DNA of 42,778 nucleotides from a virus (lineage: Duplodnaviria > Heunggongvirae > Uroviricota > Caudoviricetes): positions 1-42,778 of IMG/VR virus record IMGVR_UViG_2541047878_000002; one strand, 5' to 3'. Positions 1,419 through 42,778 of the stretch are shown here, one piece after another. The position numbers and the translations under genes are program-made. Position 1 is the first letter of the stretch, and every line of letters begins with the position of its first letter. Under the pieces are notes generated by a model, which had not been told where the DNA came from, did not search any database, and saw only the letters and a list, made by a program, of their open reading frames with translations.

Positions 1419-2489
1419 TTATTTGATTTCAATTTTGTCCCACTCCCTGCCTCTGTCATCACGATACTGTGATGCCATGGTGTCCGACTTATGCCCGAGA
1501 AGATGTTGAGCAAACTTATCGCTTATCTGCTTCTCATAGAGTCTTGCAGACAAACTGCGCAACTCGTGAAAGGTAGGCGGATCCCCTTCGAAGGAAAGAC
1601 CTGATGCTTTTCGTGCGCGCATAAAATACCTTGATACTGTGCCGGATGAAAGCGGTTCACGACGAGTAGATGCAATTATGGTTTCTCCGCCAAGAATCTC
1701 TTTGCATTTATCAAGTGTTTCCTTCATTGATATCCCAAGAGCATCAACATGCAATGTTGTTGGGATGGCAATTTTTACGCCGGTTTTGCTTTGCTCGACA
1801 TAAAGATAGCCATCTACGATATCAGACCACTTCATTTCGCATAAATCCCCAACACGCTGCCCGGTAACAACAGCCAGTTCCATTGCAAGTCTAAGCCAAC
1901 ATGGTGATGATTCTGCTGCTTGATAAATTTTCAGGTATTCGTCAGCCGTAAGTCTTGATCTCCTTACCTCTGATTTTGCTGCGCGAGTGGCAGTGACCGG
2001 GTTTGTTGTTATATGGCCTTCAGCTATTGCCTCTCGGAATGCATCGCTCAGTGTTGATCTGATTAACTTGGCTGACGCCGCCTTGCCCTCGTCTATGTAT
2101 CCATTGAGCATTGCTGCAATTTCTTTTGTGGTGATGTCTTCAAGTGGAGCATCAGGCAGCCCCCTCCTTATTGCTTTAATTTTGCTCATGTAATTTATGA
2201 GTGTCTTCTGCTTGATTCCTCTGTTGGCGAGGATTTTTTCGTAGCGATCAAGCCATGAATGTAACGTAACAGAATTATCACTGTTGATTCTCGCTGTCAG
2301 AGGCTTGTGTTTGTGTCCTGAAAATAACTCAATGTTGGCCTGTATAGCTTCAGTGATTGCTATCCTCCTGTCTCGGCCTAATCCAAACTCTTTACCCGTC
2401 CTTGGGTCCCTGTAGCAGTAATATCCATTGTTTCTTATATAAAGATTAGGGGGTAAATCCCGGCGCTCATGACTTCGCCTTCTTCCCAT
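1419..2489 (-). CDS. int: Tyrosine integrase, lambda Int type
   Basis: 356 aa, N-terminus MGRRRSHERRDLPPNLYIRNNGYYCYRDPRTGKEFGLG matches recalled lambda Int; adjacent to attL and reading toward it. Confidence 0.95.
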   Translation of the reverse strand: MGRRRSHERRDLPPNLYIRNNGYYCYRDPRTGKEFGLGRDRRIAITEAIQANIELFSGHKHKPLTARINSDNSVTLHSWLDRYEKILANRGIKQKTLINYMSKIKAIRRGLPDAPLEDITTKEIAAMLNGYIDEGKAASAKLIRSTLSDAFREAIAEGHITTNPVTATRAAKSEVRRSRLTADEYLKIYQAAESSPCWLRLAMELAVVTGQRVGDLCEMKWSDIVDGYLYVEQSKTGVKIAIPTTLHVDALGISMKETLDKCKEILGGETIIASTRREPLSSGTVSRYFMRARKASGLSFEGDPPTFHELRSLSARLYEKQISDKFAQHLLGHKSDTMASQYRDDRGREWDKIEIK

Positions 2490-11424: not shown

Positions 11425-12372
11425 ATGAGCAATACAGCAAAAATCTACGATTTCAGCGCCGCACACGAGCGCAGGAGCAACAGGATGGAGAACCAGAAAA
11501 CTGGTTACATTCCGTTGTACCGGAGCATTCTGAAACAGTCATGGGCGAAAGATGTTTATCTTCGCACCCTGTGGGAAAACCTTCTCCTGAATGCCGCCAG
11601 AAAGCCATACAAAGCGAATTTCAAAGGTCATGAATGGCATCTGCAACCCGGTCAACTGGTTGTGACAGCAGCTGATTTAGGTCTTCAGTTATGCGACAGG
11701 CATGGCAAGCCGGCAAGCCGTGATCAGGTTGAGCGGATGCTTCAGGTTTTTGTGAAAGAGGGGATGATCTCCATTGATGGAGAGAAGCAAAAAGGTCGTG
11801 TGATCACCATCACAAATTACCATGAATACGCTCAAAAAATGGACAATTCACCCGCACATGAAGCCGCACAAACAACCGCACATGATGCCGCACATGACGA
11901 AGCCAGCAATGGCGCGGCTTTCAGAGTACATGCCGCACATGAAAGCGCACATGAAGCCGCACAAACAACCGCACATCATGAACAAGAAGGTATTAACAAG
12001 AATATAAATAATACCCCCCTACCCCCCAATGGGGGAGGCGATGGGCAGGTTAAACCTGAACGTCGCAAGGCAGAACGAATCGACTACGAATCCTTCCTGA
12101 ACGCCTACAACACCGAAGTCGGTGACAGACTTCCACACGCTGTTGCGGTCAACGAGAAACGCAAACGCCGCCTGAAGAAAATCATCCCGCAACTGAAAAC
12201 GCCAAACGTGGACGGTTTCAGAGCGTATGTCAGGGCGTTTGTGCATCAGGCCAAGCCGTTTTACTTCGGAGACAACGACACGGGCTGGACAGCTGATTTT
12301 GATTACCTGCTGAGGGAAGATTCGTTAACGGGAGTTCGGGAAGGGAAGTTTGCAGACAGGGGGATTGCATGA
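11425..12372 (+). CDS. Replication initiator (O-like) containing the origin iterons
   Basis: 315 aa; position upstream of DnaB-type helicase; central His/Ala-rich repeats encoded by direct DNA repeats followed by an AT-rich stretch, as in lambda O/ori. Confidence 0.7.
11851..11982 (+). repeat. Origin iteron array inside the O-like gene
   Basis: about 8 direct repeats of roughly 12 bp (consensus CCGCACATGA(A/T)G), followed by AT-rich 11983-12015 and a C6/G5 palindromic element near 12015-12040. Confidence 0.55.
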
Positions 12373-27735: not shown

Positions 27736-29154
27736 ATGCCGATTCAGCAACTTCCGCTTATGAAAGGTGTCGGCAAAGACTTTCGAAACGCCGACTATAT
27801 CGACTATCTGCCAGTGAATATGCTGGCTACACCCAAAGAAATCCTCAACAGCAGCGGATATCTTCGCTCATTCCCGGGCATTGCCAAACGTTCCGACGTG
27901 AACGGCGTATCGCGGGGCGTCGAGTACAACATGGCGCAGAATGCTGTTTATCGCGTGTGTGGTGGCAAGCTGTATAAGGGCGAAAGTGAAGTCGGTGATG
28001 TTGCCGGAAGTGGTCGCGTATCAATGGCGCATGGTCGGACATCACAGGCGGTAGGCGTTAATGGTCAACTGGTCGAGTATCGTTATGATGGCACGGTTAA
28101 AACCGTCTCAAACTGGCCTACAGACAGCGGATTCACTCAGTATGAGTTAGGCTCAGTCCGTGACATTACGCGCTTACGTGGGCGTTATGCGTGGTCAAAA
28201 GACGGAACTGATTCATGGTTTATCACTGACCTTGAAGACGAATCGCATCCTGACCGTTACAGCGCACAATATCGCGCAGAATCGCAGCCGGACGGCATCA
28301 TCGGTATCGGCACATGGCGAGACTTCATAGTCTGCTTTGGTTCGTCGACGATTGAATATTTCTCCCTGACTGGTGCAACCACAGTTGGTGCTGCTTTGTA
28401 TGTCGCACAGCCATCACTGATGGTGCAAAAAGGCATCGCCGGGACTTACTGCAAAACGCCATTCGCTGATTCTTATGCGTTCATCAGCAATCCGGCAACG
28501 GGTGCGCCGTCTGTATACATCATCGGCTCCGGTCAGTTATCACCAATCGCCAGCGCGAGCATTGAGAAAATACTACGCTCCTACACTGCTGATGAACTGG
28601 CTGATGGCGTGATGGAATCGTTGCGGTTTGATGCTCATGAGTTGCTGATTATTCACCTGCCGCGCCATGTTCTTGTTTACGACGCATCTTCAAGCGCCAA
28701 TGGTCCGCAATGGTGTGTACTGAAAACAGGCCTGTATGACGATGTGTACCGCGCTATCGACTTCATTTACGAAGGCAATCAGATAACGTGCGGCGATAAG
28801 CTTGAATCGATGACAGGGAAATTGCAGTTCGATATCAGCAGCCAGTACGACAAGCAACAGGAACACCTGCTGTTTACTCCGTTGTTCAAAGCAGATAACG
28901 CCAGAGTTTTCGACCTTGAAGTTGAATCTTCAACTGGCGTTGCGCAGTACGCTGACCGCCTGTTCCTATCGGCAACCACTGACGGCATCAATTACGGACG
29001 TGAGCAGATGATTGAGCAGAATGAACCGTTCGTTTACGACAAACGCGTTTTGTGGAAGAAAGTAGGGCGCATCAGGAAAAATGTCGGCTTCAAATTGCGC
29101 GTTATCACGAAGTCACCTGTAACTCTGTCTGGCTGCCAGATAAGGATTGAGTAA
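27736..29154 (+). CDS. Tail hub protein, P22 gp10 type
   Basis: 472 aa, near-identical to recalled P22 gp10 over most of its length. Confidence 0.85.
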
Positions 29155-30107
29155 TGGCTGATTCGAATCTCAATGAGCCGGTAATCATTCAGGCTACACG
29201 ACTCGACACATCAGTCCTTCCACGCAATATCTTCTCGCAGTCGTATCTGTTGTACGTTATCGCACAGGGTGCTGATGTTGGTAACGTGGCGAACAAGGCC
29301 AACGAAGCAGGGAAGGGGGCTTATGATGCACAGGTGAAGAATGATGAGCAGGATGTCACCCTTGCAGACCATGAATCCAGAATTGCTGCTGCTGAAGCAA
29401 CTCTCGTCAATCATGAACATAGAATCGCAGCAGCGGAAAGCACTCTTGCAGATCATGAAACAAGGATTACTGCTGCCGAAACAGAGCTGGCTGATCACGA
29501 GACGCGAATTGCTGCCAATGAATCTGAGTTAGCAAACCATGATGCGCGAATAACTCAGAATACAACCGATATCAACGCACTTGATACCAGGCTCACAGCG
29601 GCAGAGGGAAGTATTTCGACGCTACAAAGCACAGTTGGTGATCACTCAACAAGAATATCTGCGCTTGAGTATGCCACCACGCGCAAGAAATCAGAGGTTG
29701 TTTACTCAGGAGTATCGGTAACCATTCCAACAGCGCCGACCAACCTTGTTAGCCTGCTGAAAACGCTCACGCCGTCATCCGGGACGTTGGCACCATTCTT
29801 CGATACTGATAACAACAAGATGGTTGTTTTCAACGAGAACAAAACCCTGTTCTTCAAGCTGTCGATTGTCGGGACGTGGCCCAGCGGAACCGCCAACAGG
29901 TCAATGCAGCTAACCTTTTCCGGCTCTGTTCCTGACACACTGGTCAGCAGTCGTAATGCGGCGACAACAACCGATAACATCCTGTTAGCTACGTTTTTCA
30001 GCGTGGATAAAGACGGCTTTCTTGCCACAAATGGCAGTACGTTAACCATTCAGTCGAATGGTGCGGCGTTTACCGCCACAACCATCAAAATCATTGCGGA
30101 GCAGTGA
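29154..30107 (+). CDS. Tail needle, P22 gp26 type, with coiled-coil repeats and extended C-terminal domain
   Basis: 317 aa; gp26-like N-terminus (…[26 protein letters not shown]…), five 14-residue repeats (TLADHE.RIAAAE.), longer C-terminus than the 233-aa P22 gp26. Confidence 0.8.
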
Positions 30108-37364: not shown

Positions 37365-37390
37365 AAACCCGCTTAATCGCGGGTTTTTTC
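37365..37390. terminator. Bidirectional intrinsic terminator between convergent genes
   Basis: cccgc-ttaatc-gcggg hairpin flanked by A-run upstream and TTTTTTC downstream; overlaps the mnt paralogue-2 stop codon. Confidence 0.45.
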
Positions 37391-37630
37391 TTTCCTTAGA
37401 ATTTCAGCCGCAACTTCTTTTACTCGTTCCGAGATTAATGAGGCCAGCCTCTCTTCTTCATCACGATACCCGCTTACAGGTGATGGTTTGGAGAGTGATT
37501 CTTCCATCGTAGCCACAATTTCGGAATTGATAGACCTGTTATTCATTTTTGCACGCTGCTTAATCTTAGCGTGCAACTCGTGTGTAAGCCTCAAGTGGAA
37601 CTGCGCCTCATCGTATTTGCTGTACATCAT
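37373..37630 (-). CDS. mnt: Mnt-like repressor (paralogue 2, closest to P22 Mnt)
   Basis: 85 aa from ATG 37630: MMYSKYDEAQFHLRLTHELHAKIKQRAKMNNRSINSEIVATMEESLSKPSPVSGYRDEEERLAS… matches recalled P22 Mnt along its length; the ORF-track N-extension overlaps the tailspike and was rejected. Confidence 0.7.
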   Translation of the reverse strand: MMYSKYDEAQFHLRLTHELHAKIKQRAKMNNRSINSEIVATMEESLSKPSPVSGYRDEEERLASLISERVKEVAAEILRKEKTRD

Positions 37631-37762
37631 CAATGCCTCACCAAATGGGTGGAATGGCATCGTAAAACCTACTGTACAAATCAACAATCGTACCGTTTCG
37701 GTATGTAACAAATGCCAACCGTAGCCATGCTGCGGCGATTCCTTGTATCTGGAGCAAATTAA

Positions 37763-40468
37763 ATGACAGACATTACAGCCAATGTTGTAGTGAGCATGCC
37801 TTCGCAACTCTTCACTATGGCGCGTTCTTTTAAAGCCGTAGCTAATGGCAAAATTTATATCGGTAAAATTGACACTGACCCGGTAAATCCTGATAACCAG
37901 ATTCAGGTCTATGTTGGGAACGAAGATGGTTCTCACGTTCCTGTTGCACAGCCAATCGTCATCAATGCCGCTGGGTATCCAGTATATAACGGACAGATTG
38001 CCAAATTCGTAACCGTGCAAGGCCATTCTATGGCTGTTTACGATGCTTATGGCACTCAGCAGTTTTATTTCCCAAATGTATTAAAATACGATCCAGATCA
38101 GTTTGGCCCAGACTTCAAAGAGCAGTTATCTCAATCAGGAGCATACATTAATGATGATTCAAAAGGTGATGCATTAATTGGGGTAAGGCAGCCATTTACC
38201 GGGGCTGTAACTATAACTCAGCATGAAAACAATGCTCTTTTCTTAAATGTAAAACAATTCGGAGCAATTGGGGATGGGAAATATCATCCATTATCTGAGA
38301 GGTTTTCTTCAATTTCTGAAGCAAAATCCTTATATCCTTTTGTTGACTCATTATCTCAGTCAATAGACTGGGCCGCGTGGCAAGCTGCCCTTAACACAGG
38401 AAAGGTTATTTATGGTACTGATAATGCGTATGTAATAACGGATACGTTAACACCTGTTTCTGGTGGTGGGATAATTGGTCTTGGTGTGGGCAAATGGGTC
38501 TCCGGATATACTGCAACATTTGCTCCTGATATTACCACAGGGACCACATTCCTGATGTACGGGGTAGGAAATAAAAAATATACTGTAGATTGTGTTTCTA
38601 ATATGGATGTTAGTGGTGGTGTGGTTTCTAATCCATCTTCCGAAGACCCGTATACAACAACAGCACCTGCGTCATCATATGATTTATTGGATTTTACTAA
38701 CGGTGATGCTAATGGGACTACAAGAGCCACGCTTAAACCATTCTCTGCCGCAATATTGATGCCTGAGACAGGATGTGTTCGCCTTGAGAACTTTCGTGTT
38801 GTTCCATATTTCAATGGGCTGGATGGTTATAAAGACATTGCAAATACCGGTCTTGGCGATGAGTGGGATGTAGGTATTTGGTCACGTGCGTCTTTTGGCA
38901 ATGAATACCGCAATTTGCAGGTGGTTGGATACTGGCGCAAGACGGCACTTTTAAAAACGAACATTCCTGTATCTGGCACGCTGGCTGCTCAGGGCGAGGA
39001 TGAAAACTATTATCACTGTAGATTCCAGGGATTCAAGGGTGTTTCGATCCGCGCCAATGATGTATTCCGAATTACAGCGGTAACGTCCAGCACTATCGAA
39101 ATCCCATGGTCAGCAAGCCACACCTTCGAAACGTCCGGAGTTTTAAGATCTGGAGGCAGGAATTTCACTTATTCAGGATTATCCGTATCCGGTGATAAGT
39201 TAGTATTTACTGGAGTGTCTAACGCTTCTGAGGCAACAGTAGGTTCTACTATACGGCGAAATGACATAGATAACTTTGGTATGGCGGGAACGCAATTTTT
39301 CGATTGCTACATTACCAGCCTGTATCACCACACACATCTGCTTGCCACATCGCAATACCTGTCTCAACCATTCAGCCGACCATCAGAGTGTATGGAGGTT
39401 TCAGGGGAACCAGTTCGCGGTGTACAGGTACATGCAGGAACCATTCAGGGATGGGATGATGTTCTTATTCATCTGCATGACTGTGGAAATATGAACTTTT
39501 ACAGTACATATTTCGAAAGCCAGCAAGCATATGTAACTATAAATGGTGGTAATGCTATTGGTTATGGAGCACGTATGATAGCTTCCCGGCAATCAACAAG
39601 CTCATTACCATATGCAGCAGGGAATACACGAGTGCTTAGAATGGTCGGGTGCTCTGAAGGCAATGGCGTTGACTGGGGTCCTGTATTTAACAACTATACA
39701 GGAGGAAGATATAATTCTGGAGACGGTGTATTTAACCCCCGCGATGCATTTATAGACCATAAATCTCTTCCTGAGCAGTCAGGAGGTGAGTCAAGACTCG
39801 TATCACAAAAAGGAAATGCCAGAGTAGTATGTGGTGTTGGTAAAACTGTACTGCTTGGACCAACGTCAGGAGATTGTAATTTACAGAGTAATACCGGAAG
39901 TTTAAATATTAGAAGTGGGATAAGAGTAAGAGTCGGTCACGCTGATGGAACAGACTGGTGGTTGGCAGATGCTAATAAAATAGCTCCTGTTGATGATAAT
40001 GTTAAAGCTATTGGACAGCCATCAAACAGATGCTCTGTTATCTATGCAGGAACCGGGTCAATCAATACATCAGATGAAACTCTTAAAACAAGATATGATA
40101 TTATTAATGCAGAGCGTGATGCCGCTATTGAAATAAAGTCAGTCATCTATAAATTTAAATTTAATGACTCAATTAATCACAAAGGAATTGAGTCGTCCAG
40201 GTATCATTTTGGCGTTGGCGCTCAAACCGTAGGGGATATTCTTAGAAAGCATGGTTTAAATCCTGAGCAATATGCTTTTTGGTGTTACGATGAATGGCCT
40301 GACGTATGGGATGAAGAGGTGATAACTGAAGAGAGCACAGATCCTGATACAGGTGAGAAAATTTATTCTCAATATAAAACAGGAGATATGATTCTTGTAA
40401 AAAAAGCAGGAGGACGCTACGGAATTCGTTATGACGAATTGGCTATGTTTATATTAATGGCAATGTAG
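37763..40468 (+). CDS. Tailspike: P22 gp9-type head-binding N-domain + divergent receptor-binding domain + C-terminal intramolecular-chaperone-like domain
   Basis: 901 aa; residues ~1-115 match recalled P22 gp9 ([11 protein letters not shown]…[22 protein letters not shown]…); AT-rich distal part; C-terminus carries …NTS|[10 protein letters not shown]… (S770/D771). Confidence 0.85.
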
Positions 40469-40957: not shown

Positions 40958-40972
40958 GCTTTTTTATACTAA
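40958..40972. repeat. attR core (GCTTTTTTATACTAA) preceded by lambda-like P arm
   Basis: identical to attL core; upstream 40815-40957 matches the recalled lambda P arm (tctgttacaggtcactaataccatctaagtagttgattcatagtgactgca…); downstream acttgagcg is the host B' arm. Confidence 0.9.
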
Positions 40973-41062
40973 CTTGAGCGAAACGGGAAGGTAAAAAGAC
41001 AAAAAGTTGTTTTTAATACCTTTAAGTGATACCAGATGGCATTGCGCCATCTGGCAGAGTGA

Positions 41063-41647: not shown

Positions 41648-42778
41648 ATGAAACGCGCATATAAATACCGGTTTTACCCGACAACTGAGCAGGCTGAGCT
41701 TTTAGCTCAGACGTTTGGCTGTGTGCGCTTCGTCTACAATTCCATCCTTCGTTGGCGTACCGATGCGTACTACGAGCGAAAAGAAAAGATCGGTTATCTA
41801 CAGGCCAACGCTCGCCTTACGGCGCTCAAAAAAGAGCCTGAATACATATGGCTGAATGATGTTTCCTGCGTTCCCCTCCAGCAGTCGTTGCGCCACCAAC
41901 AAGCCGCCTTTGCTAACTTCTTTGCCGGACGAGCTGCATATCCGGCTTTCAAAAGCAAACGGCACAAACAGGTGGCTGAGTTCACTGCCAGCGCGTTTAA
42001 ACACCGTGACGGCGAGTTGTATATAGCAAAGAGCAAGTCGCCGCTGGATGTTCGCTGGAGTCGAGAATTACCATCTGCGCCGTCAACCGTTACCATTTCC
42101 AGAGATAGCGCTGGCAGGTACTTTGTTTCCTGCCTGTGTGAGTTTGAACCTGTATCAATGCCTGTTACCGCTAAAACGGTCGGCATTGATGTGGGCTTAA
42201 AAGATTTATTCGTCACCGATACCGGATTCAAAACCGACAATCCCCGCCACACCGCTAAATATGCGAAGCGATTAACGCTGCTACAGCGACGTTTAAGCAG
42301 GAAGCAAAAAGGCTCAAGAAACCGTATTAAAGCCCGCTTAAAGGTCGCCCGACTCCACGCGAAAATCGCCGATTGCCGGATGGACAATCTGCACAAGTTG
42401 TCCCGCAAACTGATTAACGAAAACCAAGTTGTTTGCGTCGAATCCCTCAAGGTGAAAAACATGATCCGCAACCCGAAGCTGTCTAAAGCAATAGCTGACG
42501 CAGGCTGGAGCGAACTTGTTCGCCAGCTCCAGTACAAAGGCAAATGGGCCGGGCGGTCAGTGGTCGCCATTGACCAGTATTTACCGTCCTCAAAATGCTG
42601 TAGTTGCTGCGGTTTCACCATGCAAAAAATGCCTCTTAATGTTCGTAAATGGCACTGCCCTGAATGCGGCGCAGACCATGATCGCGACATTAACGCGGCA
42701 CGTAATATTAAAGCTGCCGGGCTGGCAGTGTTAGCCCACGGAGAGCCTGTAAACCCTGAATCGCAGCACGCGGCTTAG
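41648..42778 (+). CDS. tnpB: TnpB (IS200/IS605-family OrfB, RNA-guided endonuclease family), intact
   Basis: 376 aa with RuvC-I GIDVGL, RuvC-II VCVESLKVKNM, RuvC-III HDRDINAARNI and zinc finger CCSCCG…CPECG; stop codon is the last triplet of the window. Confidence 0.85.
   Translation: MKRAYKYRFYPTTEQAELLAQTFGCVRFVYNSILRWRTDAYYERKEKIGYLQANARLTALKKEPEYIWLNDVSCVPLQQSLRHQQAAFANFFAGRAAYPAFKSKRHKQVAEFTASAFKHRDGELYIAKSKSPLDVRWSRELPSAPSTVTISRDSAGRYFVSCLCEFEPVSMPVTAKTVGIDVGLKDLFVTDTGFKTDNPRHTAKYAKRLTLLQRRLSRKQKGSRNRIKARLKVARLHAKIADCRMDNLHKLSRKLINENQVVCVESLKVKNMIRNPKLSKAIADAGWSELVRQLQYKGKWAGRSVVAIDQYLPSSKCCSCCGFTMQKMPLNVRKWHCPECGADHDRDINAARNIKAAGLAVLAHGEPVNPESQHAA

Follow-up and report, generated by a model that had tools for sequence, protein, structure and literature searches.

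The window, a stretch of DNA 42,778 nucleotides long, carries a complete P22-like (Lederbergvirus-type) E. coli prophage inserted at the lambda attachment site, delimited by its att sites and flanked by ybhC and ybhB. PHROG matches within the prophage cover the terminase, the portal, the major head protein, head closure Hc3 and a tail needle with knob, as well as the ejection proteins, SieA and an antirepressor; the P22-like virion module is complete and adjoins the immI region, the context expected of a P22-like tailspike. The tailspike gene is the last prophage gene ahead of attR, and an Arc/Mnt-type repressor gene lies directly upstream of it in divergent orientation, an arrangement that the annotations of strain 04-00955 and CUS-3 show as well. 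The features of the locus are the following:

1331-1349, attL, the partner of attR (direct repeat D3)
1419..2489, minus strand, lambda-type integrase
37373..37627, minus strand, Arc/Mnt-type repressor gene of the immI region (Pfam Arc, E = 3e-15)
37763-40468, plus strand, tailspike open reading frame, 901 amino acids
37763..38113, plus strand, head-binding (particle-attachment) domain, residues 1-117 (Pfam Head_binding and alignments)
38114..38161, plus strand, linker and N-side recombination joint, residues 118-133, 33% GC (similarity breakpoints)
38162..39964, plus strand, receptor-binding and putative depolymerase domain, residues 134-734 (right-handed parallel beta-helix)
39965..40069, plus strand, stalk segment before the predicted cleavage site, residues 735-769, with the putative helper residue R756
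40070..40465, plus strand, C-terminal intramolecular chaperone/autoprotease domain (Peptidase S74), residues 770-901 (Pfam, phmmer and Foldseek)
40070-40072, plus strand, predicted nucleophile S770, within the chaperone domain
40085-40087, plus strand, predicted general base K775, within the chaperone domain
40958..40976, no strand assigned, attR, copy of the lambda att core (GCTTTTTTATACTAA; direct repeat D3)

The tailspike protein is a mosaic. Its residues 1-113 span the whole of the Pfam Head_binding profile (PF09008, positions 1-113 of 113, E = 1.3e-65), and this domain can be aligned with the N-termini of P22 gp9, Sf6 gp14 and CUS-3; as in these three phages, residues 1-117 would attach the trimer to the tail hub. 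Alignment with the P22 gp9 structures is restricted to residues 1-121, in agreement with the sequence-only reading, which had confined the gp9 match to the first ~115 residues, and the similarity to Sf6 gp14 extends further, to about residue 184. Nucleotides 1-340 of the gene are ~88-90% identical to the CUS-3 and 04-00955 tailspike genes, and DNA similarity to other tailspikes is broken at about nt 340-400 and at about nt 2228; at the first of these joints the similarity to 04-00955 and CUS-3 stops, at about nt 340, and that to the phiV10-anchored protein of YDC107 begins at nt 399. The breaks are as expected of the chimeric, domain-swapped tailspike that had been proposed. The distal rise in AT-richness that had been remarked upon is also borne out: the GC content drops from 43.6% in the head-binding part and 43.5% in the central domain to 39% in the stalk and 36.1% over the final 132 codons, against 47% for the whole prophage.

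The earlier assignment of the C-terminal domain holds: its profile match, its homologues of solved structure and its predicted fold all identify it as a true S74-type intramolecular chaperone. Residues 770-832 match the Pfam Peptidase_S74 profile over its full length (PF13884, positions 1-58 of 58, with position 1 on S770), by the small margin of 1.5 bits (23.5 bits for a cut-off of 22; E = 6.9e-5). A phmmer comparison with solved chaperones gave matches to 7y5s (8e-23), 9vvr (3e-15), 3gw6 (2e-14), 4uw8 (7e-12), 6eu4 (5e-11) and 3gud (3e-9), and the PDB sequence matches fall in the C-terminal region, at about residues 694-898. The AF2 model of the domain has a pLDDT of 95-98 over residues 770-901, and below E = 0.2 Foldseek matched it to chaperone/ICA domains only (3gw6, 1e-12; 4uw8, 5e-11; 3gud, 8e-7; MyRF 7dc3, 8e-3; the next match has E > 0.2). 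With the chaperones of endoNF of K1F (3gw6), the T5 L-shaped tail fibre pb1 (4uw8), a neck-appendage protein (3gud) and gp51 of the Klebsiella phage Kp7 (7y5s), the tailspike domain has in common its fold (Foldseek E = 1e-12 to 8e-7), homology in sequence (E = 8e-23 to 3e-9), a similar size of ~130 residues, and a Ser-x4-Lys dyad that follows an I-x-T-S motif and has a conserved Arg 14 residues upstream. It differs from them in that its identity to the solved S74 chaperones is only 27-31% in fold alignments, in that its cleavage is a prediction, and in an insertion of its own in the beta-hairpin region, at about residues 845-880.

In the alignment, S770 falls on S911 of endoNF and K775 on K916, and R756 corresponds by position to R897; the S911/K916 dyad of endoNF and the helper R897 in its stalk have been described (PMC8326128). 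Among 63 sequences (62 family representatives and the query), S770 is conserved in all 63, K775 in 62, D771 in 60 and R756 in 57. Because mature endoNF (1v0e) and mature T5 pb1 (4uw7) both end at the Thr preceding the Ser, the predicted scissile bond is T769/S770. The start of the domain had been placed at the Ser-Asp junction S770/D771; S770 does open the domain, but the predicted bond lies one residue before that junction. Cleavage there would release a piece of 132 residues and 15.3 kDa, and not of ~14 kDa as had been estimated, together with a mature spike of 82.9 kDa. The segment ahead of the bond, residues 735-769, matches positions 126-160 of the Pfam End_tail_spike profile with a score of 22.8 bits, the cut-off being 25, and aligns to the endoNF stalk (PSNRC versus PSNRF); the pLDDT of the stalk is low in the monomer model. 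By analogy with the homologues, this segment would form a short trimeric stalk, and residues 770-901 would nucleate the folding of the trimer. After correct folding of the stalk, S770, activated by K775 and assisted by R756, would attack the T769-S770 peptide bond, and the chaperone would remove itself, the 15.3-kDa fragment being expected to be absent from the virion.

The central domain, of about 600 residues, is without a Pfam hit. The profile Pect-lyase_RHGA_epim (PF12708) gave no match in the query domain at E <= 1e-3; it is matched by 19 of 51 family members and by the sister tailspike described below. The model of the domain (pLDDT 88.9) is a right-handed parallel beta-helix, with an N-terminal cap like that of LKA1gp49 and phi297 and a putative beta-barrel insertion. 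A search for beta-helix families, which had been suggested as a check, is thus negative for Pfam and positive for the predicted fold. Likewise, everything beyond the head-binding domain had been called unrelated to P22 gp9, which is correct for the sequence but not for the fold, since the model belongs to the same class as gp9. A protein homologue search with the central domain returned near-identical E. coli proteins only, and the diversity of its relatives was obtained from a 50%-representative search. The best relatives in both sequence and structure are the tailspikes of the Pseudomonas phages LKA1 (gp49, 4ru4) and phi297 (4ru5), whose N-terminal anchor differs from that of the query. LKA1 gp49 is a lyase that cuts the O5 O-antigen of P. 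aeruginosa, an O-antigen and not a capsule (PMC5701251), and the proposed catalytic residues Asp497/His494/His499 belong to that protein. By homology, residues 134-734 would bind, and most likely cleave, a surface polysaccharide.

A different outcome at either of these domains, with the C-terminal domain remaining part of the mature spike (perhaps as a knob or binding module at its distal end) or the central domain binding a polysaccharide without cleaving it, appears very improbable to us. The marginal Pfam S74 score would allow for the former, and the latter would fit with the beta-helix having no assignable catalytic residues of any defined glycosidase or lyase family. Across 62 diverged relatives, however, the nucleophile Ser and the base Lys are essentially never replaced and the helper Arg only seldom, a conservation that is hard to reconcile with a non-catalytic domain, and each structural match is a self-cleaving domain. 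As for the central domain, the alignment of the beta-helix family has invariant residues at D369 and E585 and a conserved one at R430, and the fold neighbours of the domain are nearly all active depolymerases. We therefore hold to a tailspike made of an attachment domain, a swappable beta-helix and a self-cleaving chaperone, which we regard as highly probable.

This architecture is already known, and its direct precedent is the endosialidase tailspike (siaK1) of CUS-3, a P22-like, K1-specific prophage. The CUS-3 protein has the same layout (P22-type Head_binding domain, capsule-degrading module, stalk and Peptidase_S74 chaperone), and its gene has the same position, closing the late region and adjoining the ant/mnt immunity genes; the two proteins are 86% identical in the Head_binding domain, over residues 1-125, and 35% identical in the S74 chaperone, over residues 734-893. 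Their catalytic modules, in contrast, are unrelated. CUS-3 has a GH58 beta-propeller, a beta-barrel and a full endosialidase stalk (End_beta_propel, E = 1e-233), whereas the query has a right-handed beta-helix and matches the endosialidase stalk profile over the last ~35 residues only; the substrate is polysialic acid for CUS-3 and, by prediction, a Rib-Kdo capsule for the query. An endosialidase (GH58) identity, which the End_tail_spike match and a name used by one source had suggested, was rejected, as there is no match to either the propeller (PF12217) or the barrel (PF12195). The name in question, 'putative endo-N-acetylneuraminidase', is given there to a 991-residue variant.

The central domain and the chaperone travel as one cassette (residues 134-901). 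Other E. coli prophages have this cassette, ~97-99% identical, behind an anchor of the phiV10/epsilon15 type, and phage YZ1 has a 78%-identical version behind one of the T7 type. A single receptor-binding and chaperone cassette is in this way seen to move among three podovirus lineages, P22-like, phiV10-like and T7-like. A sister tailspike, WP_194085859 (824 residues), belongs to P22-like prophages of the E. coli 04-00955 type. It shares with the query the head-binding module (~90% nucleotide identity), the stalk-end and chaperone module (86%) and the ybhB/TnpB/bioA neighbourhood, and it too occurs on a second anchor type; its central beta-helix, however, is only ~25-30% identical to that of the query.

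The genomes that carry the central domain provide a pointer to the receptor. The K13/K20/K23 capsule gene krkA is present in 11 of the 15 carriers, all confirmed by accession (carriers being complete E. coli genomes with the central domain at 98.7-100% nucleotide identity), compared with 65 of 5426 complete E. coli genomes in the background (Fisher test, genomes treated as independent: odds ratio ~273, P = 4e-19). This is the occurrence expected of a depolymerase acting on such strains. Of the 29 genomes with the sister central domain, none has krkA (P = 1.8e-7 versus the query-type carriers), and for this reason the sister tailspike presumably targets another polysaccharide. The krkA of UPEC_U013 is WP_001336789, the K13 polymerase of an earlier study (PMC12887879). 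In the carriers 23CRST013, OZ547246, LS45 and XH992, krkA was not found even by sensitive 'distant' blastn; a divergent krkA was thus looked for in these four and not found at the DNA level, the count still being 11 of 15. Two of the carriers, EC21Z-144 and EC21Z-151, are from the same patient.

The classical P22-like tailspike is an endoglycosidase that acts on O-antigen, and the tailspikes of P22, Sf6 and HK620 illustrate that O-antigen specificity is the rule in the group. The receptor might likewise be an O-antigen here, the K13-type capsule link being incidental; the phi297 and LKA1 tailspikes as best relatives, with LKA1 gp49 an O-antigen lyase, speak for it, as does the O102:H6 serotype of the carrier YDC107 (PMC6035167). 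The O-antigen clusters that accompany near-identical central domains are nevertheless unrelated to one another: those of UPEC_U013 and DLL7555 are of type O6, with mannose-pathway genes, that of YDC107 is of type O102, with rhamnose-pathway genes, and the other 12 carriers have neither type. Each O-type tested accounts for at most 2 of the 15 carriers, against 11 for krkA. The O102 O-antigen was rejected as the receptor, its wzy gene being present in one of 15 carriers only, and so was O6, which is found in two and is no common denominator. We consider an O-antigen receptor distinctly unlikely. Taken together, the krkA association and the differing O-types of the carriers make a ribose-Kdo capsule the likely receptor, and on balance we lean towards a K13/K20/K23-type capsule of group 2, whose backbone is ->3)-beta-Ribf-(1->7)-beta-Kdop-(2->, as predicted from the genome association. 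The specificity, earlier described as unknown, is no longer wholly so, although the capsule stands as a candidate substrate. With a pI of 5.9 the central domain is slightly acidic, and its charge lends no support for the binding of an anionic Kdo polymer. It should also be borne in mind that the current host of a prophage may not display the receptor used at infection.

The capsule link could still be an artefact of lineage, the true receptor being another capsule, ECA, colanic acid or the LPS core. The association test treats genomes as independent, nine of the 11 positive carriers share a krkA allele at 97%, and four of the 15 carriers are without krkA. Against shared descent as the cause, the positives span two krkA alleles, at least three O-antigen backgrounds and prophages of both the P22-like and the phiV10-like type, which are unrelated, and their sources are human, chicken and surface water on several continents. 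There are, moreover, several integration sites among all carriers, although the two checked whose prophages lie at chromosomal sites other than that of the query, XH992 and 23CRST013, are both krkA-negative. Finally, the sister tailspike occurs with the same anchors and prophage types, and yet with krkA in none of its 29 carriers. We think a lineage artefact unlikely, if somewhat less so than an O-antigen receptor. The reading as a whole, that of a trimeric P22-like tailspike with a self-cleaving chaperone and a K13/K20/K23-type capsule as its most likely receptor, appears probable to us.

What is new here is the krkA association of the central domain; the structure is an ordinary example of tailspike modularity. 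Altmann et al. in 1986 and Nimmich et al. in 1991 reportedly described phage-borne 'KDO-glycanases' on these capsules, in biochemical terms and without gene assignment. The searchable literature yielded neither a sequence nor a structure of a depolymerase that acts on a Kdo/ribofuranose polymer, nor a cloned depolymerase for the E. coli K13/K20/K23 capsules, nor information on the hosts or receptors of phages YZ1, KMB14 and LF31P3. We see about an even chance that the central domain, together with its phiV10-anchored copies and the 78%-identical relative in YZ1, is the first depolymerase of the K13/K20/K23 ribofuranose-Kdo capsule to be identified at the gene level. If so, it would have a glycanase specificity for a beta-Kdo or a beta-ribofuranosyl linkage. 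K13_K23 is among the capsule types most strongly linked with invasive E. coli disease (PMC13171606), and a defined depolymerase for this capsule type would be useful for capsule typing, as an anti-virulence enzyme and for the engineering of phage host range. The main value of this tailspike thus lies in the receptor prediction, which offers a testable candidate enzyme for the K13/K20/K23 capsule.

The tailspike under study joins a P22-type head-binding domain to a central domain (residues 134-734), a stalk (735-769) and a C-terminal chaperone domain (770-901). It belongs to a complete P22-like prophage of ~39.6 kb, situated between ybhC and ybhB, in which a complete virion module of Lederbergvirus type is paired with an integration module of lambda type. 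Directly upstream of the tailspike gene come a SieA-like gene, antirepressors and an Arc/Mnt gene.

Prophage features referred to in the text
1331-1349 and 40958-40976: lambda att core GCTTTTTTATACTAA, at both prophage ends
1419..2489 (-): lambda-type integrase with an Arm-DNA-binding domain
37373..37627 (-): Arc/Mnt-type repressor, 84 aa; the real gene within a 217-aa antisense ORF
37763..40468 (+): tailspike gene, ORF of 901 aa

That antisense ORF (37373-38026, minus strand), which overlaps the start of the tailspike gene, is an artefact of ORF extension. Elsewhere in the prophage, the tail needle protein (gp26 homologue, 29154-30107) has a C-terminal knob (phrog_1030, 'tail needle knob') and is Sf6-like, unlike that of P22, and a 12-nt periodic motif (CGCACATGAAGC / CGCACAAACAAC), clustered in five overlapping copies at 11853-11980 within the early-region ORF 11425..12372, looks like replication-origin iterons inside a replication-initiator gene. 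Outside the prophage, an IS200/IS605-family TnpB gene (RNA-guided endonuclease InsQ/TnpB, 41648-42778) adjoins ybhB and reaches the window end; strain 04-00955 has the same gene at this spot. The attachment site of prophages with the tailspike module varies among E. coli genomes: in 23CRST013 a P22-type prophage maps away from att-lambda, around K-12 position 0.29 Mb, and in XH992 a phiV10-type prophage lies elsewhere than in YDC107 (yfgI/pdeF region).

The sequence-only reading gave the ORF the same position, confined its likeness to P22 gp9 to the N-terminus and described it as AT-rich distally; its factual statements all hold. Residues 1-113 are a Head_binding domain (Pfam, E=1.3e-65) and the gp9 structures align with residues 1-121 only, while the alignment with Sf6 gp14 extends further, up to about residue 184. 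GC content is 43.5% for the central part, drops to 39% for the stalk and reaches 36% over the final 132 codons (entire prophage, 47%). DNA comparisons place two recombination joints in the gene: nt 1-340 are 88-90% common to CUS-3 and to the sister tailspike of strain 04-00955, nt 2228-2706 are 86% common to the sister, and nt 399-2705 are 98.8% identical to the gene for a 991-aa protein of YDC107, which begins with a phiV10/epsilon15-type anchor of 205 residues. Moreover, the Kayfunavirus phage YZ1 carries a 78%-identical central domain, preceded there by an anchor of T7 type and followed by the same chaperone. The endosialidase tailspike of CUS-3 is built on an identical plan (head-binding domain, enzyme, S74), so the design is already known; its enzyme module, however, is different. 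Two places each match the central domain in E. coli SBF22, OZ547246, DLL7555 and 702/18, which suggests two copies of one receptor-binding module per genome, possibly one on a P22-like and the other on a phiV10-like prophage; an IS3 element splits the P22-type copy of 702/18.

The C-terminal domain had been read as an S74-type chaperone, and the searches agree. In Pfam, residues 735-769 match the final 35 positions of the profile for the endosialidase stalk, below threshold, and Peptidase_S74 matches residues 770-832, with profile position 1 at S770. The marginal S74 score (23.5 bits; gathering cut-off, 22) finds support in several independent results. With phmmer, residues ~730-898 match chaperone-bearing proteins of solved structure: Klebsiella phage Kp7 gp51 (7y5s, 8e-23), the endoNF chaperone (3gw6, 2e-14) and T5 pb1 (4uw8, 7e-12), as well as 9vvr, 6eu4 and the neck-appendage protein 3gud. 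An AF2 model of residues 700-901 reaches pLDDT 95-98 from S770 on, and Foldseek returned for the C-terminal model, at E<0.2, solely endoNF, T5 pb1, the 3gud chaperone and the MyRF ICA domain. In endoNF, S911 and K916 form the catalytic dyad and R897 is a key stalk residue (PMC8326128). S770 aligns with the Ser changed to Ala in 3gw6 and 4uw8, K775 with the conserved Lys five residues after it, and R756 (PSNRC), by position in the same alignment, with endoNF R897 (PSNRF). Among 63 sequences (the query and the 62 of the 150 closest central-domain family representatives that carry the C-terminal domain), S770 is present in 63, K775 in 62, D771 in 60 and R756 in 57. In mature endoNF (1v0e, 666 residues), as in mature pb1 (4uw7, 294 residues), the Thr preceding the Ser is the last residue; the predicted scissile bond is therefore T769/S770, one residue upstream of the S770/D771 junction proposed earlier for this same domain. 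Such a cut would yield an 82.9-kDa spike and a 132-aa fragment of 15.3 kDa.

The central domain has no Pfam match of its own, and its close database matches are all near-identical E. coli proteins. An exhaustive search of 50% representatives revealed a large family, with 1387 proteins scoring E<=1e-3, of which 156 reach E<=1e-30; its members have varied anchors (T7 tail-fibre N-terminus, Tail_spike_N, Head_binding); S74 is C-terminal in 20 of 51 sampled members, and 19 of the 51 match Pect-lyase_RHGA_epim. A family profile matches the first ~100 residues of the Pseudomonas tailspikes phi297 (4ru5, 6e-30) and LKA1 gp49 (4ru4, 3e-24), the start of whose beta-barrel insertion aligns with it weakly. 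All sequences in the family alignment share D369, G389, R430 and E585. As modelled confidently by AF2 (pLDDT 88.9, pTM 0.86), the domain is a conventional beta-helix; the view that the protein is unrelated to gp9 beyond the N-terminus therefore holds at the level of sequence, whereas the fold class is shared.

Among 5426 complete E. coli genomes, 15 carry the central domain. Marker genes were cross-tabulated using chimeric queries (central domain plus marker), the matching places per genome being read against baseline. The O102 and O6 wzy genes occur in one and two of the 15 carriers, respectively, and a region 2 gene of the UPEC_U013 group 2 capsule locus in 11, all confirmed by accession when the gene was searched alone. 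Its product, WP_001336789, is KrkA, the single polymerase of the K13/K20/K23 backbone ->3)-beta-Ribf-(1->7)-beta-Kdop-(2-> (PMC12887879), and the 100%-identical krkA matches include NCTC9022, the type strain for K13. Against a background of 65/5426 genomes, the odds ratio is ~273 (P=4e-19, Fisher's test, uncorrected for phylogeny). The krkA-positive carriers, from human, chicken and water isolates, span two krkA alleles, at least three O backgrounds and both prophage types; a sensitive search found no krkA match in the other 4 of the 15 carriers. The sister central domain, found on the same anchors and in the same prophage types, served as a control, and none of its 29 carriers is among the krkA genomes (93 records, 29 + 64; P=1.8e-7). 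The association is therefore a property of the central domain. The krkA gene of the UPEC_U013 kps locus (L011, 19142-34597) has two alleles at the DNA level across complete E. coli genomes: in 11 genomes it is >99% identical to that of NCTC9022 and in 53 ~97% identical; the latter allele was seen in one O25b:H4 strain and in O102:H6 strains.

The earlier interpretation is thus supported, and refined as to cleavage site, beta-helix centre and receptor. The searchable literature yielded no cloned depolymerase for K13/K20/K23 capsules. From the genome association we hypothesize that the K13-family capsule is the receptor of this tailspike, a prediction that is association-based, not biochemical, and the sole part of the analysis with real potential for novelty.
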